A stretch of 63,293 nt of DNA, the filler included, from Reclinomonas americana ATCC 50394 (taxonomy: Eukaryota): the NCBI GenBank assembly GCA_048213135.1. It is 12 parts of 12 records of this genome, joined end to end, with 100 filler letters (N's around TTAATTAATTAA, not from the genome) between each part and the next. Parts side by side here need not be neighbours in the genome. Positions count along the whole stretch, not along the records: positions 31,225 to 44,465 come from AFZH01022462.1; 11 more parts are not named here. One strand, given 5' to 3'. The notes under the pieces were generated by a model. That model saw only the letters and a list, made by a program, of their open reading frames with translations, was not told where the DNA came from and made no database searches. Both the position numbers and the translations under genes were made by a program. Positions 31,225 through 62,185 of this stretch are shown one piece after another (within the stretch, counting starts at the first letter, position 1; each line of letters starts with the position of its first letter).

Positions 31225-32643
31225 CGTCGCGGAGTCAGCAGCAGGAGAGGCAAAAAGGGAAGGCTGAGTAGATTGAGGACCTTTTCGACAATGAACGCAG
31301 TGACTCCCTTGGAGCCGGCATTCGGGTCGGTCTTGGCGTACACAATCAGGACGTCGGCATCGGGGCCGTTGGTGATCCACATCTTGTTGCCGTTGAGGAT
31401 GTAGCGGTCGCCTGCGCGAGATGGTCAGTCGCCACACTGCGGCTGTGCGTGTGCATCTCTCTGCGTGCTCACCCTTCTTCACGGCACGAGTCTTCATCGA
31501 GCCAATGACATCGGAACCAGCACCGGGCTCACTCATCGCCAGTGCACCGACATGATCACCCGAAATGAGCTGCAGCGACGGTGAGGAGATCGAAAGAGCA
31601 AGAGAGCACAATCGATGCATGGTCACCTTTGGCAAGTACTTGTGTCGCTGTGCGTCATTGCCGACACGAGCCAACCGATCCACACACAGATTGCTGCACC
31701 AGTTGTCAGTATCACACGTCTACTTCGCACAGAAACACGCTCGCTGGCTCGCCTGTGAGCACCATAGCTGAGAGCCACAGAACCCGAGGCACGGCTCAGC
31801 TCCTCCACGACCAACGCATGCTCCAGCACGCCCAAACCCAGGCCACCAAACTCAGCTGCGCACACAACACACCAGCGTCAACACTCTCCTCCTCCACCAC
31901 TACAGATCGAGCAGGAAGCCTCGCAACGATCGACCGACAAGCCCAACAGTCCCATGTCACCAAAGCGCTTCCACATGTGCTGCAGATGCCACTGTGATTA
32001 GCCTTGAGTAGTAGAGAGTGAGAGATAGAGTTATGCATACCATCGGGAACTCATTCTTGCGATCGACCTCGTCGGCAATCGGCGCCAGCTCGGCTTGCGC
32101 GAACTTTTCGACGGTGCTTTTCAGCTGTAGGAGTGTGAGAATGTGAGAATCTCTCTCGAAAATGAAATCGAGTGTGACCGATCGTCTCCTTTTGCTCTCA
32201 CTATAGCAACATGTGTGTCTGTGTTGTTAGTATGTGTGCGGCATACCTCCTTTTGCTCGTCGGTGAGGCGGAACATGTCCATGTTCACTGCAAAGCCCAT
32301 TGACCGCGTGCTGATGCGCGTCAATGTGCTCACAGGCTGTGTGTGTATGTGTGAGAGAGTGAGCACAGAGAGCGAGTGTGAGAAGAGAATAAAAAGATGA
32401 GGAAAACGAACAAACAATGACATGATGATGACGGTGGATCATTCGTGAATGCGACTGAGTGTTTGACAGTGTGCAATGAATGATCACAGTGCACGCAGAG
32501 AGAGGAAGAGAGTGAGAGAGAGTGTGAGAGTGAGACTCCGCGCAGTCAATGACTGATCGTTCTCTCTTTTTTCTTTTCTTGCATGTGTCACTATTGTCTC
32601 TTGTGCACGCAACAGCAGTGTGCCGCAATGCTCGTTGCAACAT
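31225..32643 (-). CDS. IVD: Isovaleryl-CoA dehydrogenase, mitochondrial (5' half; remainder in gap)
   Basis: [84 protein letters not shown]; presequence [10 protein letters not shown]. Confidence 0.93.
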
Positions 32644-32876: not shown

Positions 32877-34211
32877 ATGGCTGCCTCCTCCGCGGCCTCT
32901 GCGGCCAAGGAGAGCGCGGACGAGTACACGCGCAGTTACCGCGTCCTGTGGCGCGTTCTCAACGAGTTGCACTTGCTCGACGACGATGACTTTCCTGCTG
33001 TGCGTTCTCCCCTGTCCCTCACTCACTCTCTCACTCACTCTCTCTCTCTCTCCTGACTCATGCTCACTTGCACGCCGACAAATAGGATCTCGTGGTTTCG
33101 CGAGTGAGCGAGGCCACAGTCAAGCACAGTCGTGGACTCTTTGGTGGATTGCAGAATGGAAGTGGAGCTGCTTCTTCTGCTCCAGCCACTGCAGCTGCTG
33201 CACCGTCTGCCTTGCGCACAACGACAACTGTGGTGACGAATGCAGGCGCATCGGAATTGCAGAAATCGTTCTATCGCGATCTCGGCGATGCTGCTGTGCG
33301 TCACTCTTGTGCGCTTGTCCGTGTGTGAAGTGGCCCACTTGTGACACACGCGTTTTAGGCGGTGGATGCGGCGCGTGCGGCTGAGCTGACCAAGACTTAC
33401 ATTCGGGAGACGCGAGCGTGGAGCTCGTTTCGTTTCAATGAGGATGGCAAGGTCAAGGTGCTGGAGTTTTACATGGAGGAGCGGCGCCTGATGGTGCAGT
33501 GTCTGGCGCGAATGGTGGATATGGTGGCGGATCTGCGTGGGGAGGGCATTTCGCGACACAGTGAGACCGTGGCGAAGGAGGCTGCGTCGTGGGTGACGGA
33601 GCACGGTCTGCTGCAGAAGGTGTTGAAGGAGCTGCGGCAGCTGACTGACGACGGCTTCCCGCCGTCGGTCAAGAAGGATGTGGGGCATCGTGCGCGCTGG
33701 TCGGTGCAGCGTGTGCGTGAACGACGCGAGCTGCTGCATTTGCTCATCACCATCATGCTGCGTCTGCCGGACCACATGACGAGTTCGCCAGTGTGCGACG
33801 TTGTGCGCCTCCTGCGCGACACGCAGTTTGGTTTGAAGCGGTCGCCCACGATTTTGCCCAATGCGGAAGGCTTCCTGCCGTCGCTGCAGCACCTGTCGAT
33901 CATTGCCGCGGTGGTGGCTATCGGGTTGCCGTTGATTGGCGTGGGCGATGAGGGGTTGCGTCTGCGAGCAAGCATGCGCAGTCGAGAGGTGCCCACCAGA
34001 GAGACTCATTCTTCTCCTCGATAGACCGCGGTGGCATCCGATCGCCGACAATGTGCAAGAGGTGGCCAAGGTCTACACGGAACCATCGACGGCTGCGGAC
34101 CAGGGCTTGCTGCGACTGACATATGTGGCCTTTGTCAAACTCGCCCGCGAGTTGGTGCCGTCGGATGAGCCGCTGCCGCCGTATGTCGTTGCGTTGGGAC
34201 GTGCTGACTCG

Positions 34212-34247
<36 letters not shown>

Positions 34248-37200
34248 CTGTATGTGTCTCAGTCATGCCATTTCTCGTGCGGCTATCTTGATTGTGCGCC
34301 CACTATAGCCTTTCTCGCTCCCACTAATGTCTCTCTGTCTCCCTTTCTTTCACCCCTACCTCTCTTTGTGTGCGTGCGTGTGTGTCAATCATACCGTGAT
34401 TCGTGCATCTCGCTCGTTGCTGTACCCACCTCGCTTTCCTCTCTCTCTCTCTGTGTCTCAGGCATGCCATTTCTCGTGCATCTATCTTGATTCCGCACCC
34501 GCAGCCCTCACTCTCCACTCATCCCTTCCTGCCTCCCTTCCCCTGTCCCTTTCTGTCTCCCTTTCCCTGCGCACCCTCAGCTCGAAGCCGCCGACCTGCA
34601 AGCCGGTCCTCTCGACTTTCTCCTCGAACTGCTGCGCAGCGAGGCCACGAACGGCAAGCCGGTGTGTGCATTCTGTGTGCAATGTTGATCGTCACTCTAT
34701 TCGCTCGCCCTGCTCACCGACGAGGAACAACAGTACGTAGTGGAGTGGGTGACGGCTGCGTACACCATCCTGCTCGCCGTGGTTACCATGCGAGCAAATC
34801 CCATGATCAATGCCGAGACCGAGGTGGAGCCTGTGGAGGCGGTGCAGTTGCAGGTCGACATTCTGTGCGAGACACTGAAGAGACCAGCCGTGTGTGCCAC
34901 ACTGTGGCTGCCCGACAACTTCGACATGAGTTTCGTGTGTGTCCGGTGGTGTCACACGTTTTGCTGTTGCAGTCGGCTGATAGTATCACGACACACACAC
35001 AGAGGTCATCGACACCTTGCTGCAGGAATTGAAAGTACGTGCTCCGTGGAACGGAGCACCTCTGTTGCAGCTGCTGAGTGGCATGTCGTGGGACGACAAG
35101 TCGGCTTCCACGATGTGCGTGTATCTCTCTGGTCATCGCCGCCACCTTGGTGTCTCTCTCTCTCTGTCTCACGCACATTCGCGTAGCATGCACATGATGC
35201 AGCAGCCGATGGCCAGTTTCACGACGCTGTGTCAGGGGCGCGATCTGAGGGCTCATTTTGACGGTCTCTTTTGCATTCCTCTCGCGCTGCTGGCTGTTCT
35301 GATGGCACTCATGTGTGTGTGTGTGTATGTGTGCAGTGGACAGCAAGTCCGACATGGTGTCGATCCGCAAGGACCGCGAGCACTTTGGCGGGTACCTGGA
35401 TGCGTACAACACGCGGTACGCCATTCCACAATTCACCTACGAAGCCGTTCGACGCCCGGTGGCGCAGCGCGCTGTTGCCGGAGAATACAGCTTGATGGAC
35501 GAGGCATGGTACCTGCTGACCTGGGCACCGATGCCAGTTGCGTGCGAGCGCGCCGAGTGTGCTGGGAGAGAATGGCAATCATTCCGTACTGACCTGGTAC
35601 ATTGCGCACGCAGCGCTGTGCCGGTTGCAAGTCCTTGCCGCCACTCAAGTTCTTCCTCCTGCCCGGCTGTCCAGCCGAGCATCCGCTGTGTGAGGATTGC
35701 TTTTACCGCGTGCTGAGTGAACCAGTGTCCAGCGCCATGGACATTGCGTGCCCGTTCTGCATGGTGAGTACCGTTCCCGTCGTCGCTTCAACGCTCCCGG
35801 TGCGCTCACCATTTGCGAATCATGGCTCGCAGTCGACATCACCAATGCCAAGACCACCGTACTCCTCTCTGGAGGTGAGTGCGTTTTCATTGAAGATCTG
35901 GTTTTCGCGAAACTCACTCCTGTGTGTTGGTCCACAGTTCTCGTCCGTGTCGCCCATCTTTTCACCAATTGCCTTGTACTTCCGCCAGTTGCACTTGCTG
36001 CTGCAGGCACTGAAGCCGCAAACAGAAGTCAATCCATATGTGCGCATGGAGATGTACAATGCGTGCACGCAGTTCCTCTCGCTGTTACACAAGTTCCTTG
36101 TTCGTTGCGTAAGGCCATCTGTTGACTGCACTGGTCGGTGAGTTCGTTGTGTTGACTTCCCACACAGACATGCCCTCGCGAGACACGGTGGCTGTACTGG
36201 ACATGTACATGGCACAGGAATTCCAGCAAGACCCCGAGCAGTCCAGGTTTGGCCGCTCTTGTCCCTACGATGTTCTTGTTTCATGCTGGTCTTGTGCGGC
36301 TTACAGTCGCTCGTCTGCACAGTGGCTCCTTCTGTGGTCTCGTGCTGCAGTTGATCTGCAGCTCGACGCAACAGGGCGTGGCACCACCACCGCCGCAGCT
36401 GTACGCCGAGTGCTTCAATTGTGTCGCTGCCATTGTCGGTGCGGGGCGGTGTGGCGGCAGCGAGTCCGTTCGAGAAAGAGTGTGGCTGCTGACACACTTT
36501 TGCGCAGACATCGACTTTGACATGGTGGACCAGCTGCTGCAGTGGGATTCGTTTATTGCCGGATTGTACTGCATCAATCAGTTGGAGCAGCAAGTGACTC
36601 TGTATCCAGCCACGCAGGCCTTTTTGCAGTTCTCTCGCACGATCATTGACGGGTGAGCATTCCGGCTGTCTGCTGTTGTCATTCAGTTTCGCTCACTGTC
36701 CCCACGACGACAGTTCATATCGACGACCGAATCGAGCCAGTGCCGTGCACTCGCGCATCGTGTTTTGCGTGCAACACGACATTCTCGGCGGCTTCAGTGG
36801 GTGGACGTATCAGCGTCTCTCGGAGCGGTGGACACTGGCGCTGGAGGTTACGCCGTGGAACTGCCTGCGTAGAATGAGATGACAACGCTGCTCACACGCG
36901 ACACATGCAACTCGCAGTGCGTCAAGTTCCTGTCGCGCGTGATCAGTTTCGCGCACCCAGCGCAGGTGCAGGCGCCGGAGAACACTGCGCTGTGGCGCAG
37001 CAATGTGCTTGCCGACGAGCTGCTGCACAATCCGGCGGCGCATGAATCCTTCTTGCAGCTGCTGGCCAGTGCCCTGTCTCACGTGCACAATGTGCGCAAA
37101 CTCGACCGGCTAGAGGAGACTGCGGTGTTGGAGGTTTTGATTGCAGAGGCGCTGCGCTTCGTGCAGACACTCTTTGTGTACCGTGTGAATGCCAGGGTGA

Positions 37201-38046
37201 GTGTGCCTGTGAGAAGAGTGTCACATGTGAACGGACACTAACTGTTTGTCATGGCGCCTGCACAGGATGCGCAAGGAGAACTGCGACTTGCATCGCCATT
37301 CGAAGAGGCGTTTGTGATGCTGGAGCATGGCAGGCAGCGAGCGCACCAGTTTTTGGTGGTGGATGTCATGCATTTGGCCTCCGAGTCCAGTCTGGTGCGT
37401 TTTTCTGTGCGATGATGCCCCTGCTCTCGTTCCGCAGATCTGACACTCTGTTGCTTGCTGGCCGCAGCCGTTGCAAGTATTGAGTACCGAAGTGACGAGT
37501 TTGGTGGCGCTGGCCATTGGAGACTTTAGAATACGACCGCCATCGCTGGTCGGCTACTTGGGACCTGAAGTGCGTGCAGCACGCTCACATGCACGCACAC
37601 TCTCTTGCGGGGATGCTCATCATGTCGTGCCACACAGATCGACACGTACGCACAATCCAATCTCAATTCCTTGTCGTACGAGGGCGAGGCTCCCGAGCTG
37701 CGCACGGCCATTGTCTTGCTGATCAATCGCTCTCTCGGATCGCAAGTGCGTCCTCTTCCGCGCGCTGCATGTGTGTACGAGACAATTTCTCACAACTGTA
37801 TCTGCCTTGTTTGCACATGCAGCCTGGTCTCGCGGGCTACTTCTTGCGTCCACCGGCCGACAACCAGCCGACGGGCCCAGCGACCAAGGCCGTGACTGCA
37901 GCCGCGTCGAGCGTGAAGCTTGCGTCATCATCAACCGCACCTTCGTCATCGGTACCAAAGAATGCCCTCGAAGCGGTTGAGGATTTGTTGGCCGACATTG
38001 CTGGTGCTCTGCGGCGACCGAGGTGCGTGCTGGTGGTGGTAGTCTC

Positions 38047-38098
<52 letters not shown>

Positions 38099-41000
38099 GA
38101 TGAGAGTTCGGCAGCTGATTCGATCATTCAGTTCGGCGCGCCTCGTGTGCGAAGTGTTGAGTCTGGTTCTGGAACTGTGGTCGGCCAGCGATTGCATGCA
38201 TTTTGTTGCGTGCGGGATTCGATTGCTTCGTTTCACCATTGTGCATCGTATTCCTCAATTGTGTGTCTCTTTCTGTCGTTGTACAGGTTGTGAAGCATCA
38301 ACGCGAGGACTCGACATTCTGGGCGAATGCACAGAGAGCACTGTCGCTTGTTGAGGTGCTGGCGAGTGAATCTGGTGCGAGTGGCAGCGGCAGTGCGCTG
38401 GATGAAAGCATGGAAGCAGACGTTGAGTCGCCGGAGCTGTCGGACACGCTGCAGACGGCATTCCGCTTGCGCGCCCTGGCGATTTTGTACCGGCTGGCTG
38501 CGCAGCAGCTGTTTGTCGACCAGGCCACAGCGAGTTGCGTGCAAGTCACGCTCTCTTGCAAGAGAAGTGCGTGTGTGTGTGTGTGCTGACTGGTGGTGCA
38601 CAGGCAAACCACAAACCACACAGGGTGCGTCAAAGAAGGCCGAGTTCCTCAAGCAGTTGCTGCAAGAGGAGCGGTTGCGGCAGTTGATCACGGTGTGCAT
38701 GGACGCATCGCACTTTGAGAAGGTGGCCGCCAGTCGTCGCGAGTGTCGCGAACTGCTGCGCCAGTACAACAACGAGTGGGACGGATCGCGACCGACTGTG
38801 GTGCGTATGTCTAAAGCGGTTGTGCAACAGCGGACCTCTGTTGACTCTTTTTCTTTGTTGAACAGACCATGGAGATGCTGACTGCAATGCAAGCGACGGC
38901 GGAGCGTGCCGAGTCCTCGTACGGACCCAACTACTTGTATCACGAAGAGAAGGGCTTTGTGCTCACTGGCAGCCGTGACTTGCAACGTTGCGTCCGAGAG
39001 AAAACGACGCGAGACTCCTCGCATCGTGCTCACGCGTTGTTGCATCACCAGGCGCCTTGCATCGTCTCAACTTTTACGAATCGCTGTCGGATGCACGCAT
39101 CCAGATGATGCAGTCGGTCTCGCGCGTGCTAATGGTTGTCTTCCCAGCCATGCAGTACCACAATCACACCCTCTCAGTTGTGTCTCATGATGGTGGTCGA
39201 TTGGTGGTGTTGCGCGCCTTTTCTCACGTTCGTGCACAGTCGGCGGTGACGGATGTTCTCAAGATGACGCGTAAGCTGGCCAGCACACTGGTCGAGTTGG
39301 CGAGTCCAACACTGCGTGAGTGCGGCGAATCCCGCGAGGCTCAGTTGCGTTTCTGTTGTGACCACATTCATGTCGGTTTCTGTTTTCTGACACGCGCAAA
39401 TGCAGGCTGCTAATGGAGGAGGTCTCGGGTATCTTCTTGTGCTTGGTGAATGCGTGGACGGATCGAGTTGGCGACGCGGGAGAAGCGGCTCTGGAGCACT
39501 ACGAGGGTGCGCGCTTTCCCGCCACGCACCGTCCTTTGTTTTTGCCATTGCGTGACTCACTGTATCTCCGTGCAGCTCTGCAACGGGTACACGATCGACT
39601 CACCGAGCTGTTGCTCTCTTTGCATCTCGGCAGCCACACCGTGCAGTTCAACATGCTCACTTCGCTGCTCCGTGTGCTGCCGTTTGCGCAGTTGCGAACT
39701 CCCAGACTCGTCTTACGTGTTGCTTCACTCTCACACACGCATATCCTCCCTCAGAGTCGACTCTGTCAGCGGCGACACACTGGTGTACGTGTACGAGCTG
39801 TTTTGCGATCCGGTGGTGCGACCGCTGGCCTCGGGCGTCGTGTGCCAGTACATTTGGCACACCCCGGATGCCACGCGACCGTCGTTGATTCACACCATTT
39901 TCACCCAACTGCCCATGTTGTCGACGGTGGCTGCTGGTGAGCGCATGTGCTTACGTAGGCGTCCCACGCTTGTGTCGTGCTCAATCTCTCGCGGCGTTGT
40001 AGACTTGAGCAGTGAGAGCCGCCAGCGGTCCACGGCTGCGTCGGCGCTTGTGCTTGCCGTGGCACGCACACGTGACGGTGCATTGGCACTGCTGAGTGAG
40101 GGCGTTCTTGCCGACATCATGTCGATGATCTCGCAGGATGCCGGCCCCATTGAGCCGTATCTCGACGACCATGGACACGTTGTGCGCCATCCGCGACATC
40201 GAGTTGCGTACTTGCTGCCGCGTTCGTCTCACTTTTCGCTTGCTGTGGCTGCTGACGTCGCAACGCAGTCATGGTGTGTCATTCTCATGACGATTGCGTC
40301 GATGCTCGAGCAAATTCCCGAGTCGACCGAGATGCAGCATCGTGTCATGTCGTTCTTCGACCTGTGGCAAGACCAGCTGCTGAGGGGCATGCTGGGCGTG
40401 TTTCAGTCGTCTCCATTCCGCCTGGCACGGCTGGAGGAGTGCTTGTGTGTGTGCCGCGTGATTCATGCGTTGTCGTACGTCACGCTGCCGCCACCGCTCT
40501 TTGTCAACAGCTGTCTCCACCTGTTTGCACAGGTCAGTCGTCGAGCCGCGCGGGGAGGGAGAGAGAAGGAATCGTTGTTGATGACCTTCTTCTTGCCCTT
40601 GTGCAGTTTGTGCAAGGCAGTCTGGAGAAGGGGCGCATGCTGGGCATTTTCACGCATCCGCGCGACTTTTTGAAAGCCTTCGACGCCAAGTCGGTGGCCG
40701 AGAAAGTGGCCTACTACGTCGGCAAGGAGAACACACTGGCGGCGCCGTCGGGCGATGAGGTCACTCCGCCCACCAACGGTCGCACCGGGCGTCGAATGAT
40801 GCACTCGCAACACTTCCCCGGATCACCGAGCTTCTCGCAACCGGCGGGGGCGTGGCCTACGTCCAGCATCCAGCTCAGCGGCGCAGCATCGTGAGTGCTG
40901 CATTGGTGGAGAGTTGCATGACTGTGGCTGCCGCCAACTCACTCTTTCGATAGAAAACCGGGCGGTGCCGTGGAGGACAGTCCGATCAACAATGCTGCGC

Positions 41001-41962
41001 TGATGGAGGGCGAGTTTGAAGTGTCCAAGGACGGTTTCGAGCCACTGGCCGAGCGGTACTCGCTGTCGGTGGTGCACACGCTTCTTGGCGTGTTCAACAA
41101 CCTCGCGCCACCGGCGTTCTCGTCGTCCTTCTCGGCTGAGGTGTGTGTCGATGCTGGGAGGGTGGGGCTGCATCATATACAAGTGAGTCATGGCACTCGT
41201 ACAGAGACATGGCCTTCTGTTCAAGCTGGAATCGTCGTCGGACGGCATGCCGAGTCTGCGCACGTTGCGCACGTGCATCCTTGGTGCGTCTGATGCGCTG
41301 CGCAATCGGGTGAAGAAGAACGACAAGGTGTGTGCCCGTCACCATATACTCTCTCTCTCTCTCTCTGTGTGTGCTCCTCACCCGCGAGAGCTTCGTTAAC
41401 AGGGTCGGCATCAGCGAGTGGTACGGACGTTGCTGTTGCAGATTCTCGAGCACAGTCTGTACGTGCTGTTGTGTGATACGGAGACGTACTATCGCAACTA
41501 CCGATCGCATGTTTCGTACGTTTTTATTCTCGCGCCGTGCTGGCACTTGCTGATGAACCTTGTGTGCAGGGCATGTTCTCGAATCAGAAGAACTTGGTGG
41601 TCAGTGTGGCCCGCGAGTTGTCGGCCGAGTTGGAAATGCTGCTCGGCAAGCTGACCGACTTGAGTGTCGACTCCAACCCCACTCCGCTGACACCAGCGCC
41701 GTCCCTCGAGCCTCCTCGAGTTGCGTCGCACTGCGTACCGCAAGAGAGAGAGAGAGAGACGCTCACGTTCGTTTCACTCGCACAGTTCGAGGCCGACGCT
41801 GGCTCGCCGTCTGCGGCCTCCGGTTCGCACTCGTTCGAGGGCGGCAGCGCCCCGCAATCGGGAGCCAAGATGCGCGAGTTCCTGGTCGAGACGCGTCAGT
41901 ACCTCATCTCGCGCATCGCCAAGCTGCAAGACACGGGTGGTAGTGTGCTGGGGATAGTATGA
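32877..41962 (+). CDS. NUP188: Nucleoporin Nup188-like scaffold protein (~40 exons) with an inserted RING finger
   Basis: Collinear matches to Nup188 motifs: YMEERRLMVQCL, WSVQRVRERRELL, APLLQLL, IPQFT..DEAWYLLTW, EQQVTLYPATQAFL, WTYQRLSERW, PPSLVGYLG, QPGLAGYFL, YGPNYLY, SLSDARIQ. Confidence 0.82.
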
Positions 41963-42047
41963 TTCAATCAATTGCAATGAAGGACGCGAGCTCCGTTATG
42001 TAAAATAGCTGAGTGGAATCATAACAAGCGCAGGGAGAGTGGGATCC

Positions 42048-42554
42048 ATGGGAGCCGCCTCCTCCAGGAGTTGCAGAACGCAAGGGGAGTTTGCCTCTCC
42101 ACATTCTTTCAGCGAAGCGCGTGGAATGCTGCGTATCGGAGGTGCCATTGTGATCACCGCACGAGGTGACGACGACGAGGTGAGTACGCGCGACAATCGG
42201 TGCGCGTGCTACTCACTATCGCGTCTTCCTTTTTATTGCCTCTTGGTGTTCTCGAGCTCAACATCATCCGTTCGCCCTACGCAGACAACTGTTGAACTCA
42301 AGTGCGCCTCCACTGAGGATGTTCACATGGATGCCACCGTTGGAGACGTGCACATCACCGCCTACGGCCGGGTTGTGAAGTCTGACGACACATGTTTGAC
42401 GATATTCGGGAAGTTCGAGGCGGCCGAGCCCGGGTCCCATCGTCGTGTTGCCAGCGCCGGGACCTGCTTCATTCGCATTTGCCGCGATCACCTCGAGCTG
42501 ACTGTGGAGGGTGTCGCCAGCCGGCCATTGATAGCTGCCCTTGAGTGGCGGTGA
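42048..42554 (+). CDS. Small hypothetical protein, two exons, possible N-myristoylation signal (MGAASS)
   Basis: ATG at 42048, GT-AG intron 42180-42284, coding-like composition; no recognisable family. Confidence 0.5.
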   Translation: MGAASSRSCRTQGEFASPHSFSEARGMLRIGGAIVITARGDDDEVSTRDNRCACYSLSRLPFYCLLVFSSSTSSVRPTQTTVELKCASTEDVHMDATVGDVHITAYGRVVKSDDTCLTIFGKFEAAEPGSHRRVASAGTCFIRICRDHLELTVEGVASRPLIAALEWR

Positions 42555-42621: not shown

Positions 42622-44189
42622 CTACGACGATCCGAACGCGACGGCGAGATTCCACACCCGCACGCTGCCGGTCCGATCGGCGGAGACCACCTTGTCGCTC
42701 CCGACGAGCGTCGTGAAGTAAATCTGCTCCTTGTGGCCAGCCAGGAGCATAATGGTCTTTCCGGTTAACACATCCCACACGCGAATGTGGCCCTCTGCAC
42801 ACAACGCAAAAAGTTCAGCATCGACGGTGTGTGCACAGTCAGAAGCGGGGCAACGAGTCACCTGCGTCGGAAGACACGAGCCGCTTCCCGCTATCGGCAA
42901 GCACCAGGCACTGCAGGTTTCCGGCGTGCCCAGTGAAACGGCGCATCATTATGCGGTCGGCACTTGCCACTGTCATCTCGCACACATTGAAGCCTACTCC
43001 GCCAGTCCACAGCATGGAGGCACTGGAGAAGCACAGGGCCCACGAGTGCGCCGGGATCGGTATGCTCCTCAGGTACTCACCGCTTTGAGTTGAAAACAGA
43101 CTGATGACACCCTTTGAGGAGAAGTCGTCGGCCGTTTCGCTGGGCACATCGTGACTAACGGCCAGCAGCTGGTCGTCCGGCGAGAGTGCCATGCTGAAAA
43201 CACACACTTCGCCGGTGCACCGCAGAGGCGCCACCTCAACGCCGGTGAGTCCGTCCAGTTGCTCGATCGTGTCCACATGCATTGTGCCGACAAACACTTG
43301 TCGCTGATCGCGCGTTGCGCACATTCCGCGCAGATCGCGCTCCTTCTCGCGCGTGGCCCACACCAGCTGCGGCCGCTCGCCCAGCTCCCACAACTGCAGA
43401 GACGAGAAAGTGTCGTACTTCTCGTCGGTTCGTTCAGTTCCCACCAGCAATCGACTGTCGCTGATGAACTGCAGGCGGCCAACAGCGTGGCTGGCGACAA
43501 AGGAGCACACAGGCCGATAATCGCCGTCGGCCGAGAGCACCTCCACGCGACCAGTGTCGTAGCCGATGGCGAACACGGACGAGAATGGTGAGCCGACGGC
43601 TGTGTTGATGGATTCCGCCGACATGCTCCACTCTGCCTCGATTGCCGGCGGCAGCTCATGACTGGTCGCAGCGATGCAGCATTGAGTCTCACTCTCATGC
43701 ACTCTACTCTCACTCCCCCGCCTGCAGTTCACGCAACGTCGACACGGCGATCAACTCCAAGGTTACGGTCCTCTTGATTCCGAGATCCGCCAGCACCTTG
43801 CTGCGTGCACTCTTTGCTGCACACTTGGCCGGCTTCTTCACACCCGTGACAACCACGGTGGGATCGCCACTGAGCTCCCGCAGCTCCTCTTGAAAGCCGG
43901 TGAGCAGATCGTCGAGTGTGGCCGTGTTCGGCAGTGTGTCGACGCTGGCAAAGAACGACGAGGTGACGCCTTGACCAATGGGCAGCGTGGCTCGGGCGCC
44001 AGCGGAGACGAGCTGCGCACAGAGAGAGTGAGAAGGGAGCGAGAGAGACAACAAGCGAGGTTGTCTCTCTCACACCTGCTCCTTCTTGGCTCGCTTCTTT
44101 GGCGGCGCCTTGGACGCGGATGCAGCAGCCGCTCCAGAGGAAGAAGCGCCATCGTCGTCAGTGGCAGAGGTCTTGCGCGCGCGCTTCAT
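42622..44189 (-). CDS. WD40-repeat protein with an N-terminal bipartite NLS-like segment and an unknown ~100-aa domain
   Basis: MKRARK...PPKKRAKK; degenerate WD repeats (FTGHAGNLQCL..IRVWD, LAGHKEQI..VRVWN); 4 exons in consistent phases. Confidence 0.8.
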
Positions 44190-54692: not shown

Positions 54693-55824
54693 ATGGCTTC
54701 TATGGTGTGTGTATGCGCGCGTGTGTGTGTGTGAGAGAGAGAAAGGGCATCTGTCTCACCATGCGCAGCGCACGCAGATCTTGGAGGGGCACACTGCCGC
54801 TGTGTCGAGCGTGACCTTCACCCCCGATAGTCAGCACGTTGTGAGCGGCAGTCATGACAAAACAGTGCGAGTGTGGTGTGTAGCAAGTGGAGAGCAAGTG
54901 CGACTACTGGAAGGACACGAACATGATGTGTTGTCGGTCGCCGTCGCTCCCAATGGTGCGCACATTGTCAGTGGGGGTTACGATGAGACTGTGCGAGTGT
55001 GGTCAGTGGCGAGTGGCGAGGAGGTGCGACGGATTGGGGGAGACATAGGATGGGTGCTGTCTGTCGCTGTTACTCCCGACAGTGAGCATATTGTACATGG
55101 GAGTGATACCAGCATGAGTATGTGGTCACGGACGAGTGGGGAGGAGCTGCATCGGTTCGAGGGACACACTGACTGGGTGCGTTCTGTCGCTGTCACTCTC
55201 GATGGTCAGCACGTTGTGAGCGGAAGTGCTGACGGAAGTGCGCGAGTGTGGTCACTGGCAAATGGAAAGGAGGTGCAACGTTTGGAGGTGCAAACGGCTA
55301 TGGTGTGCGCTGTCGCTGTCACTCCCGATGGCCAGCACGTAGTGACTGGAGCTCGAGACAAGACCGTGTGTGTGTGGTCAGTGGCAAGTGGAGAAGAAGT
55401 GCGGCGAACGGGAGGTCACATACACACTGGGAGGGTGAACTCGGTCACCGTTACTCCCGACGGTCAGCACATTGTCAGCGGCGGTACTGACATGGTAGTG
55501 CGAGTGTGGTCGCTGGTGAGTGGTGAAGAAGTGCATCGGCTTGAAGGACACGCAGGCGAGGTCTTGTCTGTCGCCATCTCCCCAGATTCGAAATACATTG
55601 CGAGTGGCAGCGCCGACGATACAGTTCGAGTGTGGTCCTCGCCGCGAGGATTAGCTGGGCGGGAGGTCGCAGCCGCGCGATTGGCCGTGGAGGCTGTCAA
55701 TGAGTTGCTTTCCGAGGAGGAGGAGGAGGAAGAGGACCACGACTGGATCCTCGTTGATGTAGTGTTGCGGTGTTTTGTGTTGGAGGATGCAGAAGTAATT
55801 GAACGGGGAGCGTCGGGGTGGTAA
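54693..55824 (+). CDS. WD40 array copy 1: MASM micro-exon, 7 WD40 repeats, conserved helical tail
   Basis: Exon 54693-54704, intron, exon 54778-55824; repeat consensus LEGHTxxVxSVAVTPDGQHVVSGSxDxTVRVW. Confidence 0.92.
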
Positions 55825-56075
55825 AGTGCGAAGAATATGAATGCCAGACACATGTACATCGCGGTCGTCTCTTCATTTGTTGGCTCTTTACGAATGTTTG
55901 TGCAGTCTGAAGTCTGCAAGGAAGGTCCTCAGTGCAGCGCACTGTGATATGCACTCCTCCACGACAGCAAAGCTTGTCGGTGCTCCCCTCATTAACGACA
56001 ACTTCAAAGCGTCATGCAGGACAGCTCTCGTCGCATCATTGGCCATCATTCACACGCTCACACGCAAGGAACGGA

Positions 56076-56927
56076 ATGGCATCAATGGTGTGTGTATGTG
56101 CATGTGTTTGTGTGTGTTTGAGAGATCGTCTGTCTCATCATGCACACACAGATCTTGGAGGGGCACAATGCCTCGGTGTCGAGCGTAGCCTTCACCCCCG
56201 ACGGTCTACACGTTGTGAGCGGAAGTTATGACTCAACAGTGCGAGTGTGGTCTGTTGTAAGTGGAGAGCAAGTGCGGCGACTACANNNNNNNNNNNNNNN
56301 NNNNNNNNNNNNNNNNNNNNNNNNNNNNNTTAATTAATTAANNNNNNNNNNNNNNNNNNNNNNNNNNNNNNNNNNNNNNNNNNNNACGAGGTGCTGCGGT
56401 TGGAGGGACACACCGGGGCAGTCAGTTCCGTCGCTATCACCCCCGATGGCCAGTACATCGTAAGTGGAGCCCGAGACACGACCGTGCGAGTGTGGTCGCT
56501 TGCAAGTGGCAAGGAGATGCGACGGCTGGAGACTCGCACTGGGCGGGTGCACTCGGTTGCCGTCACTCCCGATGGACAGCACATTGTAGGGGGCGGTCCT
56601 GACATGAAAGTGCACGTGTGGTCGCTGGCAAGTGGTGAAGAGGTGCATCGGCTGGAGGGACACACAGGTGTGATCCTGTCCGTCGCCGTCTCCCCAGATG
56701 CGCAGCATATCGCGAGTGGGAGCACTGACATGACCGTGCGAGTGTGGTCCTCGCCGCGAGGATTAGCTGGGCGAGAGGTAACAGCTGCGCGACTGGCTGT
56801 GATGGCCGTCAACGAGTTGCTTGCCGAGGATGAGGAAGACCGCGACTGGATCCTCGTTGATGTAGTGTTGCGGTGTTTTGTGTTGGAGGATGCTGCTGTG
56901 ATTGAGCGACGAGCTCCAGGGTGGTGA
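56076..56927 (+). CDS. WD40 array copy 2 (interrupted by a gap; could be two genes)
   Basis: Same MASM|ILEGH start before the gap; WD40 repeats and tail after it. Confidence 0.85.
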
Positions 56928-56954
56928 GGGCGCTTACGTCAATTGATCAGTAAA

Positions 56955-57115
56955 CAGCGTGTCAGAGGATGACTGTTGGAGAAGGAATTATACAGTATGT
57001 TTGTATATTGTTGTTGTGCCAAGGTCATTGTCGGCAAGGGATTTGTGGGCCGCATCATAACCAGGAATGTGGTGAATGGTTTTGTTTGTTTGGTCGGCAT
57101 GAAGTAAATGTGTCG
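56955..57115. repeat. Solo diverged copy of the 121-bp repeat family seen at 8785-9261
   Basis: TGTTTGTATATTGTTGTTGTGCCAAGGTCATTGTCGGCAAGGGATTTGTGGG aligns with TGTTTGTACATTGCTGACGTGCCACGGTCACTGTC / GGCAAGGGATTTGTGGG. Confidence 0.75.
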
Positions 57116-57180
57116 CCGAGTCGTCCTGCACAAGTACTCTCTGTCCCCCCACCCTCTCTCTCCCTTGAGTCAAGAGCACC

Positions 57181-58254
57181 ATGGCGACTGCTGCTCTTTG
57201 CATCCCCCGCGTGCTTCATGGACACACCAACTTTGTGCGTTCCGTGGCCTTCGCCCCCGACTGTCAACACGCTGTGAGTGGCAGCGATGATGGAACTGTG
57301 CGGGTGTGGTCACTGGCAAGTGGAGAAGAGGTGCGACGACTGAAGGGACACACCAGAGGTGTCATGTGCGTGGCGGTGACGCCCAACAATGAGCACATTG
57401 TCAGTGGGAGCAGTGATACGACATTGAGAGTGTGGTCTCTGACGACCGGCGAGGAGGTGCGATGCTTGTTGGGACACACGTGGGCAGTGAACTGTGTCGC
57501 TGTCACTCCCGACGGGGAGTACGCTGTGAGCGGGAGCTCTGACAAAACAGTGCGTGTGTGGTCACTGGCGACGTGGAAAGAGGTTCGACGGATGAAAGGG
57601 CACACTGACTGGGTGATGTCGGTCGCTGTCACTCACAGTGGGAATGTGGTGAGTGGGGGCTATGACAGAACAGTGCGAATGTTGTCGTTGACGAGCAGAG
57701 AAGAGGTGCAAGCCTCAGAGGTGCGGCGAGTCGAGGGACACGCCGGAATGAATCACACAGTCTCTGTCACCCCCGATGGCCAGCACATTGTGGCTGGAGG
57801 TCGCGACAATGTCGTGCGAGTGTGGTCACTGCCAAGCGGAGAGGAAGTGCGGCAAATGGAGGGTCACAGTGGGTGGGTGAACTCGGTCGCCGTCACTTCC
57901 GATGGCGGGCACATTGTCAGTGGATCTTCGGACATGACAGTGCGCGTGTGGTCGCTGGCAAGTGGTGAGGAAGTGCGTCGGCTGGAGGGACACACGGGTG
58001 TGATCTTGTCCGTCGCCGTCTCCCCAGATGCGCAGCATATAGCGAGTGGCAGCGCAGACCATACCGTGCGAGTGTGGTCTTCTCCGCGTGCCCTGGCCGG
58101 GCGAGAGCTGTCTATTGCGAGACTGGCCGTGGAGGCCGTCAACGAGGTGCTTGCCGAAGACGAGGAGGAGGACTGGATCCTCGTCGATGTTGTGTTGCGG
58201 TGTTTTGTGTTGGAGGATGCAGAAGTGATTGAGCGGCGGGCGTCGGGGTGGTGA
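57181..58254 (+). CDS. WD40 array copy 3 (7 repeats plus tail, apparently intronless)
   Basis: 357-aa ORF with the same architecture. Confidence 0.92.
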   Translation: MATAALCIPRVLHGHTNFVRSVAFAPDCQHAVSGSDDGTVRVWSLASGEEVRRLKGHTRGVMCVAVTPNNEHIVSGSSDTTLRVWSLTTGEEVRCLLGHTWAVNCVAVTPDGEYAVSGSSDKTVRVWSLATWKEVRRMKGHTDWVMSVAVTHSGNVVSGGYDRTVRMLSLTSREEVQASEVRRVEGHAGMNHTVSVTPDGQHIVAGGRDNVVRVWSLPSGEEVRQMEGHSGWVNSVAVTSDGGHIVSGSSDMTVRVWSLASGEEVRRLEGHTGVILSVAVSPDAQHIASGSADHTVRVWSSPRALAGRELSIARLAVEAVNEVLAEDEEEDWILVDVVLRCFVLEDAEVIERRASGW

Positions 58255-58404
58255 GTTTGGCGGGGAATTCGAATGAGTGAAGTGTGGGGAATACAGTGCA
58301 ACTGTCGCACAACGCAGTTAGGAACAACCTGCGTTCGCTGTTCATTTGCATGCCATTCACAAGCCAAGGCTGACCGCCAAAGCCAGTAGATGATTTCACA
58401 CGAC

Positions 58405-59546
58405 ATGCAGGACATAGGTGTTGTTTATATATATGTGTGTGTGAGTGTGTTAGATCGTCTGCCTCACCATTCTTGATCATGCGCGCATGTATACAGATCT
58501 TGAGGGGACACACGTGGCCGGTGACCAGCGTTGCCCTCACTCCCGATGGCCAGCACGTTGTGAGCGGCAGTCAAGACACCACTGTACGTGTGTGGTCACT
58601 GGCGAGTGGAAGAGAAGTGCGACGACTGGAGGGTCACATCGACTGGGTGTTGTCAGTCGCTGTCACCCCTGATGGTCTGCATGTTGTGAGTGGGAGCAAG
58701 GACAAAACCGTGCGAGTGTGGTCGCTCGCGAGTGGGGAAGAGGTGCGGCGATTGATGCGCCATGGTTGGGATGTGAACTCGGTTGCTGTCACTCCCGATG
58801 GTCGGCACGTTGTGAGCGGAAGCACTGACAAGACAGTGCACGTGTGGTCACTGACGACTGAGGAGAAGGAGGTGCGACGGTTTGAGGGGCACACTGCCTG
58901 GGTCCGGTCGGTCGCCGTCTTCCCCGATGGCCAGCACGTGAGCGTGAGCTCTAACCATTCCGGGCATGTGTGGTCCATGTCGAGTGGAGATGAGGTGCGA
59001 CGTGTGGACGTGCACCCTGCTTTGATGCTCTCCGTTGCCGTCACTCCCGACGGCCAGCACGTTGTGAGTGGCTGCAGCGATGGGATAGTTCGAGTGTGGT
59101 CGCCGGCGAGTGGTGACGAGGTGCGACGGCTGGAGGGGCACACTGGGTGGGTGAACTCGGTCGCCGTCACTGCCGATGGCCAGCACGTTGTGAGTGGAGC
59201 TGCGGACAAGACGGTGCGTGTGTGGTCGCTGGCAAGTGGCGAGGAGGTGCGTCGGTTCGAGGGACACACTGGTGGGGTGTTGTCGGTTGCCGTCTCTCCC
59301 GACGCACATCATGTTGTGAGTGGAGCCGCGGACAAGACGATACGAGTGTGGTCCTCTCCTCGCGGGCTGGCCGGGCGAGAGCTGTCAGTCGCACGACTGG
59401 CCGTGGAGGCCGTCAACGAGGTGCTTGACGAGGGCGAGGAGGAGGACGACTGCGACTGGATCCTCGTCGATGTTGTGCTGCGGTGTTTTGTGTTGGAGGA
59501 TGCAGAAGTGATTGAGCGGCGGGCTCCGGGATGGCTTGATGAATAA
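58405..59546 (+). CDS. WD40 array copy 4 (7 repeats plus tail; first exon uncertain)
   Basis: Acceptor at 58496 precedes ILRGH; ORF runs to 59546. Confidence 0.9.
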
Positions 59547-59596
59547 GAACCGACTTTTGTTGCACCCTGCCCTCACTTTGCCTTTTCTACCCCGCT

Positions 59597-60676
59597 TCAC
59601 TCTCCACCTCGTGCAATACCCCCAGCCCCCGGCATGAGCTGCCTCTGCAGAAATCTCTTGCACAGCTTGCCCACGTGTTCCTCGAGCGCCTTGCCATCAG
59701 CGCCCGTCGCCGCCAGCTGCCACTCCTCGGCACACGACCGGCGCAGCTCGTCCATCACATCGTCGACAAACTCGCGCGCCAGCTCACGCCGATACTCCAC
59801 GCTGTCGAGCTGCAGCGGGCCCACCTTGCTCACGGCACACTGAATGCGCTCCGGAGTGAGATAGCACTCGGCCTCGTTCTCAAAGAACTGCAGCCACACC
59901 TCCAGCCCGAGCCCAGGCGGCGGCACACTCTTCGCCGCGTATCCGTTCTCCGCGAATCGACTCTCGCCAAACTCCTCAATCTTGTGCTTGGTCATGGCCT
60001 CGTGCGGGCCACGCATCGGGCGCACCACCACACCCTCGGCCTTGTTCGGTCGCGGTGCATCACTCGGCATCTCCGTCTCACCAACCAGCGCCGGAATCGT
60101 CGACTCAAAGCCCAACGGGTACTCCATGGCCTCCGCATACGTCTCACACACCGCCAACGGCACCGCATGCAACAAGCCGACCTCGCGAAACAGTGACAGT
60201 GCCTCTTCAAAGTCCAGAAATTGCTCCTCCAGCTCCTCGTCGACCACCACAGCCACATCGAAAGCGTAAAAGTGCAGCGCGTGCGAGTAAAAGATGCCAG
60301 CTTGCACCTGCACACCAGCGCCCCATCCACCAAACAGCTCCCCGTACACATGCACAGTCGACACTGTCAATGTTCTCTGCGCGCACAGTCGCTCACACAA
60401 GGCCTCCACCAGTGGCACAGTGCGTGCGAGCATGGGCGAGGTGCGGAAGCCGAAAAAGTCCTCATGTGCGCTCAACAGGCCTCGGCGTTTGGCAAAGGCA
60501 GTGACTCGCCACTGTTGTTGTTCCTCAGTGTTGAGTGTGCATATGATGCAAAAGTTTGCACCGTGCACCTTCTCAGTCACCGCCCATTGTGTGTGTTTGC
60601 TGTTGGGTTTGAAGTCGGCGCGTACGTTGCGCCAGTCGCTGCTGGAGAGAGAGATCTTGGGGTAGCCGCGGAACAT
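59597..60676 (-). CDS. ATP-dependent RNA ligase, T4 Rnl2 family, intronless
   Basis: Start MFRGYPKI; motif I TEKVHGANF, Ia AKRRGLL..EDFFGF, III VYGELFGG, IIIa FYAFDV, IV AEGVVVRP, V TKHK; Rnl2 C-domain YLTPERIQCAVSKVG..FVDDVMDEL. Confidence 0.92.
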   Translation of the reverse strand: MFRGYPKISLSSSDWRNVRADFKPNSKHTQWAVTEKVHGANFCIICTLNTEEQQQWRVTAFAKRRGLLSAHEDFFGFRTSPMLARTVPLVEALCERLCAQRTLTVSTVHVYGELFGGWGAGVQVQAGIFYSHALHFYAFDVAVVVDEELEEQFLDFEEALSLFREVGLLHAVPLAVCETYAEAMEYPLGFESTIPALVGETEMPSDAPRPNKAEGVVVRPMRGPHEAMTKHKIEEFGESRFAENGYAAKSVPPPGLGLEVWLQFFENEAECYLTPERIQCAVSKVGPLQLDSVEYRRELAREFVDDVMDELRRSCAEEWQLAATGADGKALEEHVGKLCKRFLQRQLMPGAGGIARGGE

Positions 60677-60870
60677 GACACAACGAGGGAGACAAGAGAC
60701 AAAGAGGGAAGAGTGAGTCACGTCTTTTGTGTACACGTGTTTCGTGCATGAAGAGAAAGGTGAGTGTGGTGTGTGTGTGTGAGAGAGAGAGAGAAAGCAG
60801 CTGAGTGAGTGTGCGAGAGAGAGAGACAGTGAGCGAGTGCGGAGTGTGTTCATCATCTCTCACGAATTCG

Positions 60871-60917
<47 letters not shown>

Positions 60918-60959
60918 CAACCAAGTGAGGAGTGAGTGAGGTGGAAGGAGGAGAGCTCT

Positions 60960-61647
60960 CATCTGTCTCTTGCTCACATTTTCTTCTTGTTCTTCTTGTT
61001 CTTCCTTCTTCTTCTTCCCATCGTCCTCCTCCTCCTCGACCCTCCCTCTCTTCCTGTGTCTCCTGTGTCTCCTGTGCGTCCCTCTACCTCCTCCTCCTCC
61101 TCGTCCTCGTACTCCTCGTCCTCCTCCTCCTCCCCTTGATCTATTCTTCTTCTCTTTCGCCTCCTTCTTCTTCGTGTCCTTCTTCCTCCTTCTCCTCCCC
61201 CTCCTGCTCCTCATCCTCCTTCTCCCTCTTTCTTGTTCTTCTTATTCTGCCTCTTCTTGTTCTTCTCATTCTTCCTTGTCTCCTCTTCTTCCTCCTCTTG
61301 TTCTTGCTCTTCCTCCTTCTCTTCCTCCTTCTTTCGCCTCCTTTCCCTCTTCTTGTTCTTCTCATTCTTCTTCTTCTTATCCTCTCCTCGCCCTTGTCCT
61401 CGTCCTCCTCCTCCTTCTTTCGCCTCCCCTTCCCTTCCCTTTCCCCTCCCCCAGCCCCCTTCCCTCCCCCCGTCCCTTCCTCTTTCTTGTTCTTCTCATT
61501 CTTCCCCTTCTCCTCTTCTCGCCCTCTTCCTCGTCCTCCTCCTCCTTCTTCTTCTTCTCCACCTCCTCCTTCTTTCGCCTCCTCCTTCTTCTTCTGTATG
61601 TCCTTCTCCTCCTCATCCTCCATCCTCTTCTGGTTCTTCTTTCTTTG
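60960..61647. repeat. CT-rich low-complexity tract
   Basis: Almost exclusively C/T, with CTT/CCT trinucleotide units. Confidence 0.85.
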
Positions 61648-61875
61648 NNNNNNNNNNNNNNNNNNNNNNNNNNNNNNNNNNNNNNNNNNNNTTAATTAAT
61701 TAANNNNNNNNNNNNNNNNNNNNNNNNNNNNNNNNNNNNNNNNNNNNCGTACTACGGTACGGACGGGTACGGTACGACGTGTAGTGGTACGTCGTCGTCT
61801 CCTCCTCGTCGTCGTTCGTTCGTTCGTTCGTTTCGTTTCCTTTCCTTTCGTTCGTTCGTTCTTCGTTCTTCTTCT

Positions 61876-61928
<53 letters not shown>

Positions 61929-62185
61929 GTCTGTCTGTCTCCCTGTACACGTCTCATCCTCGTCGCTCGTCGATCGCGATCAATGAATGCTGCAATTGTG
62001 AACCTCGACTGCCACGATGTCGACACGAGCACAGATCGCGCTCGAAAGAAGAAGCTACATGCGGGATGGAGAACTGCAGCAGAGCGTCGACAGAAAAAAG
62101 AGGAAAACATCGACGTCGACAGTCTCGGCATACATTGGTCCCACACTCACAGGTCACTCTCGACTCGACGTCGCGCGCAAGAAAG

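Follow-up and report, generated by a model that had tools for sequence, protein, structure and literature searches.

A 150-nucleotide (nt) exon at positions 35614-35763 of the Reclinomonas americana ATCC 50394 DNA analysed here (assembly GCA_048213135.1; the whole stretch of 63,293 bases is called the window) encodes a RING-type zinc-finger pattern inside a gene homologous to Nup188. Nup188, a peripheral alpha-solenoid of the inner ring of the nuclear pore, is regarded as a purely architectural, karyopherin-like scaffold. On balance, we favour the reading that these 150 nt are a genuine exon of the Nup188 orthologue, coding for a lineage-specific RING zinc finger which likely serves as a docking module. 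The RING-type insertion in Nup188 is real and lineage-specific, and it is probably expressed. The gene and the exon are as follows.

32877..41962, + strand: Nup188-homologous gene, own reconstruction, about 35 exons, about 2,100-2,190 amino acids (aa)
35614..35763, + strand: RING-type C3HC4 zinc-finger exon, phase 0-0, recognised by its pattern, a chance control and three sub-threshold Pfam RING families

The stop-free translation of 35614-35763 is RCAGCKSLPPLKFFLLPGCPAEHPLCEDCFYRVLSEPVSSAMDIACPFCM, that is, 50 residues which occupy positions about 584-633 of the reconstructed protein. The ligands (C2, C5, C19, H23, C26, C29, C46 and C49 in the numbering of the peptide) are spaced C-x2-C-x13-C-x3-H-x2-C-x2-C-x16-C-x2-C, which fits the C3HC4 RING consensus, used here in the form C-x2-C-x(9-39)-C-x(1-3)-H-x(2-3)-C-x2-C-x(4-48)-C-x2-C. 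The motif spans the exon up to one codon from either end. The exon is bordered by ...cgcacgcag on the 5′ side and by GTGAGT on the 3′ side, and frame 1 alone is open over all 150 nt, the other frames holding two and one stops, respectively. An earlier note on this DNA, made from the sequence alone, had described a C3HC4 RING on a 150-nt exon at this place; its coordinates and peptide are exact.

As a regular expression, the consensus has a single match in the six frames of the window, at 35617-35760, and none in 200 second-order Markov simulations of the window (0/200). Since the real window holds one match and the simulated ones hold none, the pattern is real and beyond chance. The alternative that GC-rich intron sequence produced the Cys/His pattern by chance, for which the missing positive coding score and the missing homologue could be cited, is extremely improbable, because besides the simulations it would have to explain why the splice signals frame the match to within one codon and why all three Pfam matches are RING families.

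The host gene, judged against Nup188 profiles, is a Nup188 homologue, because its sole phmmer match is a Nup188 and its collinear hidden Markov model (HMM) score lies far above that of shuffled sequences. The search started from a large exon near the 5′ end of the gene.

33359..33954, + strand: large N-terminal exon, Nup188 N-terminal domain, with the phmmer match P0002 and HMM positions 120-295

In detail, an exhaustive phmmer search of the 221-residue exon 33359-34021 against 1,835,955,588 representative proteins gave one match at an expectation value (E) <=0.001, namely the protein P0002 (E 5.7e-4; query residues 25-195 against residues 54-219). This protein carries the Pfam domains Nup188_N (2e-20) and Nup188_N-subdom_III (1.5e-30) and matches the human NUP188 chain 5ijo_J at 6.5e-37. 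With P0002, 83 Nup188 homologues were gathered from Mucorales, Basidiomycota and one green alga, a set which is almost entirely fungal, and 30 of the 83, picked for diversity, were used to build a local Nup188 HMM of 1,987 positions.

When all 1,607 six-frame open reading frames (ORFs) were compared with this HMM, seven of the ten best matches were found on the + strand between 33.4 and 40.6 kilobases (kb) in collinear order (HMM 120-295, 470-506, 808-835, 860-929, 969-1004, 1036-1094 and 1610-1764), and the remaining three were weak minus-strand noise. The N-terminal exon reaches an independent E (i-E) of 1.5e-13 at HMM 120-295. Once spliced, the gene model reaches 131.6-149.4 bits (E 2e-42 to 9e-48), spread over four collinear domains, HMM 121-508, 635-1028, 1125-1400 and 1609-1779. 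The first of them is homologous to the Nup188 N-terminal domain (55.8 bits). The second corresponds to subdomain III (60.4 bits, i-E 7e-21), where ..GWTYQRLSERW.. aligns gapless and where the homologues used carry PF21093. The last is homologous to the C-terminal domain, and its score rose from 15.8 to 32.1 bits after a 66-nt intron beginning with GTTGCG was removed. Adding N-terminal exons to the model extended the match to HMM 83. In contrast, the best of 100 composition-preserving shuffles scored -0.5 bits and the reversed sequence -2.4 bits. The identification of the host as Nup188 in the earlier note is therefore borne out by the P0002 match and by the collinear score against the shuffles.

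Single exons are less informative than the spliced model. Pfam Nup188 models had no match at E<=10 in single exon or ORF pieces (14, then 6), and a PDB sequence search with three single exons retrieved no solved Nup188 chain. For the 221-aa N-terminal exon, a word-index search among proteins of 388-2000 aa returned no homologue, a metagenome scan gave 398 pattern matches of which 0 were confirmed, and the ESM Atlas returned irrelevant bacterial entries (<=0.87). The silence of the Pfam Nup188 models and of the solved Nup188 chains on single exons, together with the match of the N-terminal region of P0002 to the Pfam Nup192 model as well, could suggest that the host is the paralogous Nup192/Nup205 or another large solenoid. 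This seems very unlikely, as the strongest domain (60.4 bits) lies on the Nup188 N-terminal subdomain III, the C-terminal domain matches too (32 bits), and the sole match among 1.84 billion proteins is a Nup188. Moreover, the gene has about 140-190 residues outside the helical repeats where Nup188, and not Nup192, has its SH3-like insert, as far as the consulted portion of PMC3679522 goes.

The gene model itself is partly provisional. Its start (ATG at 32877) and its 3′ end (41962, or on to 42554) are tentative, and the segments 34188-34733 and 37570-38115 are provisional. Two ab initio dynamic-programming gene models served as scaffolds only and the RING region was curated by hand; owing to a weak codon-usage signal, the ab initio models picked wrong frames around the RING and in other places. 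A long-intron variant at 34188-34580 was rejected, with a drop of 9 bits in the HMM score.

The place of the RING exon within Nup188 is fixed by three exons around it.

34984..35114, + strand: last exon alignable to the Nup188 N-terminal domain, upstream anchor, ending ...APLLQLLSGMSWDDKSA; the hmmsearch alignment stops at HMM 508
35337..35536, + strand: exon A, candidate C-terminal part of the SH3-like insert, ..YAIPQFTYEAV..DEAWYLLTWAPMP; coding score +8.7, best in frame
35938..36103, + strand: exon D, FSSVSPIFSPIALYFRQLHLLLQAL...ACTQFLSLLHKFLV; the subdomain III match begins at its end, which serves as the downstream anchor

The alignment of the N-terminal domain stops at HMM 508 on ...LLQLLSGMSWDDKSA, near 35100, and the match starts again at HMM 635 on ACTQFLSLLHKFLV, where exon D ends; the RING exon falls between these two anchors. 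In the 30 homologues of the HMM, the interval 508-635 has a length of 41-189 aa with 0-3 Cys. In the window gene the same interval comprises 189 aa, including 7 Cys, and 139 aa once the RING exon is left out. In 28 of the 30 homologues the interval holds the beta-rich SH3-like insert and then a helix of the type ...YS-GWxLL..., and in fungal Nup188s this helix directly follows the segment ...IPxGTxG...VxW.. that ends the insert. By eye, exon A resembles this insert end and FSSVSPIFSPIALYFRQLHLLLQAL resembles the following helix.

It is plausible that the RING sits at the end of the SH3-like insertion: the position is bracketed by solid anchors, while the exact insertion point within the SH3-like stretch is by eye only, because that stretch could not be aligned. 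The likeness to the canonical segments at the end of the insert had been proposed in the earlier note; the equivalent adjacent segments do exist in fungal Nup188s, but neither HMMER nor hhalign aligned them with the window gene. Two details of the junctions as first described have to be amended. Exon A precedes the RING in frame, but it ends four codons past LLTW (...LLTWAPMP, at 35536). On the other side, FSPIALYF lies downstream in frame but is not adjacent to the RING, as a 42-nt micro-exon coding for STSPMPRPPYSSLE and the residues FSSVSPI intervene. A single-sequence AlphaFold2 model of exon A is of low confidence and all-helical (predicted local distance difference test, pLDDT, 58.9). 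The RING pattern was found in none of the 83 homologues (0/83), in agreement with the previous statement that canonical Nup188 is not known to have a RING domain.

The exons and introns that connect the RING exon to exons A and D are the following.

35537..35613, + strand: intron before the RING, 77 nt, donor GTTGCG, branch-like TACTGAC at 35587-35593, acceptor CAG
35764..35832, + strand: intron after the RING, 69 nt, donor GTGAGT, acceptor CGCAG; in frame and stop-free if retained
35833..35874, + strand: micro-exon, 42 nt, phase 0-0, Pro/Ser-rich linker; flanked by CAG before and GTGAGT after
35875..35937, + strand: intron, 63 nt, donor GTGAGT, acceptor CACAG

Among GT donors, GTTGCG at 35537 alone connects exon A with the RING frame while keeping ..LLTW and leaving an intron of >=45 nt; a GC dinucleotide near 35537 could also lead into the RING frame. 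The branch A of TACTGAC is located 21 nt before the acceptor G, and similar yTGAC or CTCAy motifs are present in other candidate introns. The length of the downstream intron, 69 nt, is the modal intron length. In-frame inclusion of the RING exon appears likely on these splice signals, because GTTGCG is a normal donor here, a branch motif is present and the downstream intron is standard.

The recurrence of GTTGCG as a donor was established at sites inside and outside the Nup188 gene.

31225-32226, - strand: isovaleryl-CoA dehydrogenase gene, with a 33-residue exon matching the human IVD chain 1ivh_A at E 1.6e-9
31927 (- strand); 33955, 34188, 35537, 36104, 38205, 38987, 39344, 39691, 40203 and 41720 (+ strand): GTTGCG sites, as examples

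In the isovaleryl-CoA dehydrogenase gene, the frame is preserved by a single GT donor, GTTGCG at 31927, whose intron measures 72 nt, and the flanking exons map gapless to residues ..64 and 66.. of 4o5m_A with one split codon between them. Within Nup188, the GTTGCG intron 40203-40268 (66 nt) is in frame and stop-free and reads as a 22-residue insertion if kept; without it, the score against the Nup188 HMM goes up from 131.6 to 149.4 bits (+17.8). At 38205, in the identical decamer GTTGCGTGCG, GTTGCG fits the flanking coding frames and GTGCGG, 5 nt downstream, does not. At 36104 (GTTGCGTAAGG), no GT donor other than GTTGCG retains exon D in full, uses the CAG acceptor at 36167 and leads to a next frame with a positive coding score; a GC start at 36107 fits this junction too, and the frame given by an alternative GTAAGG donor for exon D is 3 bits lower against the HMM. 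The Nup188 gene contains 14 sense and 5 antisense copies of GTTGCG, nearly all of the sense copies with a YAG 60-82 nt downstream, and the + and - strands of the whole window carry 37 and 21 copies, respectively. GTTGCG is therefore a validated, recurrent 5′ splice-site hexamer which looks weak and yet is a normal donor in this genome. A literature search on GTTGCG as a splice site returned nothing relevant. Introns of this kind would be missed by standard gene finders, which matters for the annotation of this genome. Through this donor type, validated elsewhere in the genome, the symmetric phase 0-0 joining of the RING exon in frame, as first proposed, is borne out.

A different splicing of the same region would exclude the RING from the mature mRNA through two further donors.

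35542..35547, + strand: GTGCGA, the first rival donor, located 5 nt past GTTGCG and changing the frame of the next exon
35690..35695, + strand: GTGAGG, the second rival donor, within the RING exon at the codons C-E-D; its intron would run for 143 nt, to 35832

If GTGCGA at 35542 is combined with the acceptor at 35613 and GTGAGG at 35690, or if the exon is skipped, the RING would be a relic or belong to a minor isoform. The combination gives an in-frame product with a Ser/Pro-rich loop, ..APMPVAAVPVASPCRHSSSSSCPAVQPSIRC-STSPMP.., in a part of the protein that is a length-variable loop, and both rival donors are nearer to the textbook consensus. By the Nup188 HMM the models are indistinguishable (131.6, 131.7 and 131.8 bits), and codon usage in 35614-35689 does not favour frame 1 (-6.9 vs -4.3 and -2.4). 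On the other hand, a perfect RING pattern would then be a coincidence, which none of the 200 simulated windows produced, or the trace of a very recent loss. The second intron, at 143 nt, would hold a strong GTGAGT located 69 nt ahead of its acceptor, whereas lengths among the eight seed introns whose donor is GT[AG]AG are 59-69 nt, with one of 105. In addition, at 36104 and 38205 a canonical-looking donor likewise stands 5 nt past GTTGCG, and there the frame, the coding score or the HMM favours GTTGCG. Splicing without the RING is thus considered unlikely.

The exon is RING-type by its pattern and only weakly so by curated profiles, with no scored membership in any Pfam family. Only three of the 24,736 Pfam models come in at E<=10, each of them a RING family, namely zf-RING_5 (E 0.021), zf-RING_4 (0.041) and zf_RING-like (0.066), two of which match end to end. 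By inspection, the motifs H-x-L-C, C-x2-C-F-x2-V-L and C-P-F-C are present, positions which usually pack the RING core. A look-up with a protein language model in the Atlas placed the exon near an unnamed cluster at 0.91, and among the matches listed six of eight carry Pfam families, all six being RING types with scores of 0.83-0.87; these are leads only.

Several results weigh against the reading of the exon as a translated RING of Nup188. Besides the unaligned SH3-like stretch and the in-frame product without a RING, the best Pfam score, 15.2 bits for zf-RING_5 against a gathering cut-off of 27.9, is far under the cut-offs of 27-27.9, and the other two families reach 14.1 (zf-RING_4) and 13.6 bits (zf_RING-like) against 27. 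The codon-usage score of the exon in its own frame is not positive (-5.4), as is likewise the case for the HMM-supported exon D (-4.7). A word-index search among proteins of 89-2000 aa found no homologue of the RING exon, and a metagenome scan returned three loci, all of them pattern artefacts on translation and not RINGs. No solved RING matched the exon significantly in sequence, the best being TRIM72 at E 3.8. The single-sequence AlphaFold2 model has a pLDDT of 52.9 and one helix only (residues 24-35), and Foldseek found no match with this low-confidence model. The null outcomes with structures and with the PDB are failures to test rather than negative results. As for the structure prediction suggested in the earlier note, a central helix was obtained but a confident RING fold was not.

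To judge from the residues at the positions that contact a ubiquitin-conjugating enzyme (E2), a zinc-stabilised docking module is most likely, ahead of a strong stand-alone ubiquitin ligase. The Pro after ligand 7 and the helix hydrophobics (F, V, L) are present, but there is a Gly between the first two Cys and a Met after the last Cys, which counts against strong ligase activity. At the first of these positions most active RINGs carry Ile, Val or Leu, and at the second many have a basic 'linchpin' (Arg or Lys). The role most often found for RING fingers is the docking of an E2, and this favours the alternative, already raised in the earlier note, of a catalytically competent RING ubiquitin ligase (E3) in the inner ring, which would recruit E2~ubiquitin, or the E2 of SUMO or NEDD8, and would modify nucleoporins or cargo. 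All eight ligands and the C-P-x-C motif are intact, and the helix after the fifth and sixth ligands, predicted by AlphaFold2 at residues 24-35 with low confidence, would offer a hydrophobic face of F, V and L. A pore-anchored RING E3 is known in plants, namely HOS1, as stated in the consulted part of PMC7748013. The Gly and the missing Arg or Lys speak against this alternative, as do the sub-threshold Pfam scores and the failure to find a relative of known activity. A competent ligase is the less probable role, and the docking module remains the preferred one.

In the proposed mechanism, the exon would be joined phase 0-0 by removal of the 77-nt GTTGCG...TACTGAC...CAG intron upstream and the 69-nt GTGAGT...CAG intron downstream. 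Its translation would place the RING module on proline-rich tethers (..APMP before it, the micro-exon peptide and FSSVSPI after it), at the exit of the SH3-like insert region and just before the helices of N-terminal subdomain III. The eight ligands (7 Cys and 1 His) would bind two zinc ions as a cross-brace. Every Nup188 copy would thereby expose, on the outer side of the inner ring, a single small docking domain on flexible tethers, which may serve in zinc-stabilised protein docking, with a partner RING, a linker nucleoporin or an E2 as the possible ligand.

The surroundings of such a module are known from other Nup188s. The SH3-like insert is specific to Nup188 and absent from Nup192, and its role is described as open, in the part of PMC3679522 that was consulted. 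In yeast, the flexible insert is placed between the two N-terminal clamps and comes near the Nic96 N-terminus of the adjacent spoke, for which the consulted text of PMC9061825 describes a loose inter-spoke contact only. In Chaetomium, it braces the linker cradle of Nup145N, according to the consulted section of bioRxiv 10.1101/2021.10.26.465796.

The graft of a zinc-finger docking module or ligase at the SH3-like site would be a natural experiment, marking this site as one that is exposed on the surface and tolerates cargo. This points to direct recruitment of ubiquitin-system or other partners by the inner-ring periphery, in one lineage at the least. More speculatively, and with little likelihood, the inner ring could carry its own ubiquitin(-like) ligase, with a tethered active RING on each Nup188 copy near the linker-binding cradle and the spoke-spoke contact. 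If so, nucleoporins, stalled cargo or inner-membrane proteins in the peripheral channels would be modified in situ.

The RING exon further illustrates, in clean form, how a domain can have a symmetric exon to itself. Its origin by exon shuffling, as put forward in the earlier note, could not be substantiated in the window, where no donor gene was found and a tblastn search with the exon detected no second copy. The intron-exon-intron cassette may have been inserted in one event, leaving an 11-nt border repeat CACC(G/A)ATGCCA.

An 11-nt direct repeat, CACCGATGCCA and CACCAATGCCA, is located at 35526-35536 and 35840-35850, with both copies coding for P-M-P. The first copy runs directly up to the donor that precedes the RING exon; the second falls within the micro-exon behind that exon. 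This repeat is not statistically distinctive, since three other repeats of 10-11 nt with 82-91% identity occur in the same 601 nt.

The remaining features of the window lie on either side of the Nup188 gene.

42009-42554, + strand: beta-looking ORF, appended to Nup188 by the gene models; may be a separate gene
42839-43750, - strand: 303-residue ORF, just downstream of Nup188
54694-63291, + strand: tandem array of WD40-repeat ORFs of the ..HDKTVRVWSLASGEEVRRL.. type

The isovaleryl-CoA dehydrogenase gene runs into an N stretch. The donors read in it by eye (four junctions with both exons visible) are GTATGC, GTTGCG, GCGAGC, GTGACC and GTGAGC, and the GCGAGC donor at 31752 belongs to a GC-AG intron. 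At least three of the WD40 ORFs share a near-identical ...GT(A/T)GTGTTGCGGTGT near the end of the ORF (55764, 56867 and 58194). The GC content of the window is about 55%, CT and TG microsatellites are present, and Rfam and tRNA scans of the window found nothing. The 22 N runs form 11 pairs of 44 N around a 12-base island, 3.5-9 kb apart (e.g., 2977-3020/3033-3076, 31125-31168/31181-31224 and 44466-44509/44522-44565), and look like intentional masking or a convention of scaffolding rather than biology.

In comparison with known systems, the window gene is a Nup188 with an added RING-type module, and RING ligases at nuclear pores are already known as separate proteins. To judge from titles and abstract openings, none of the papers listed in the literature searches describes a RING-bearing Nup188. 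The window gene resembles canonical Nup188 (human, yeast, Chaetomium and Myceliophthora; PF10487, PF21093 and PF18378) in its collinear N-terminal, subdomain III and C-terminal homology, in the non-repeat stretch at the site of the SH3-like insert and in its length, about 2,100 aa against 1,574-2,200 aa in the 83 homologues. It differs in the 50-residue RING-type module which, with its Pro-rich tethers, is added on an exon of its own, and in an SH3-like stretch too diverged to align.

RINGs are also found within large architectural assemblies related to the pore coat, such as the GATOR2/SEA subunits and Vps11 and Vps18 of HOPS/CORVET, where they are placed at the ends of the scaffold proteins and are reported to act largely as assembly glue. 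Compared by description, those RINGs are C-terminal on a beta-propeller/alpha-solenoid, whereas the one presented here is internal to a karyopherin-like solenoid. RanBP2/Nup358 is a nucleoporin which itself bears ligase activity for a ubiquitin-like modifier, through a SUMO E3 region. However, its mechanism is non-RING, it belongs to the cytoplasmic filaments and it is specific to metazoans, in contrast to the RING-type module of the inner ring described here. A further parallel is HOS1 of Arabidopsis, a RING E3 ligase anchored at the nuclear pore via Nup160 of the outer ring, in which a RING finger is likewise physically tied to the pore scaffold (PMC7748013, in the part consulted). By the same kind of comparison, HOS1 is a separate protein at the outer ring, and the RING of R. 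americana is an insertion in the inner-ring solenoid itself.

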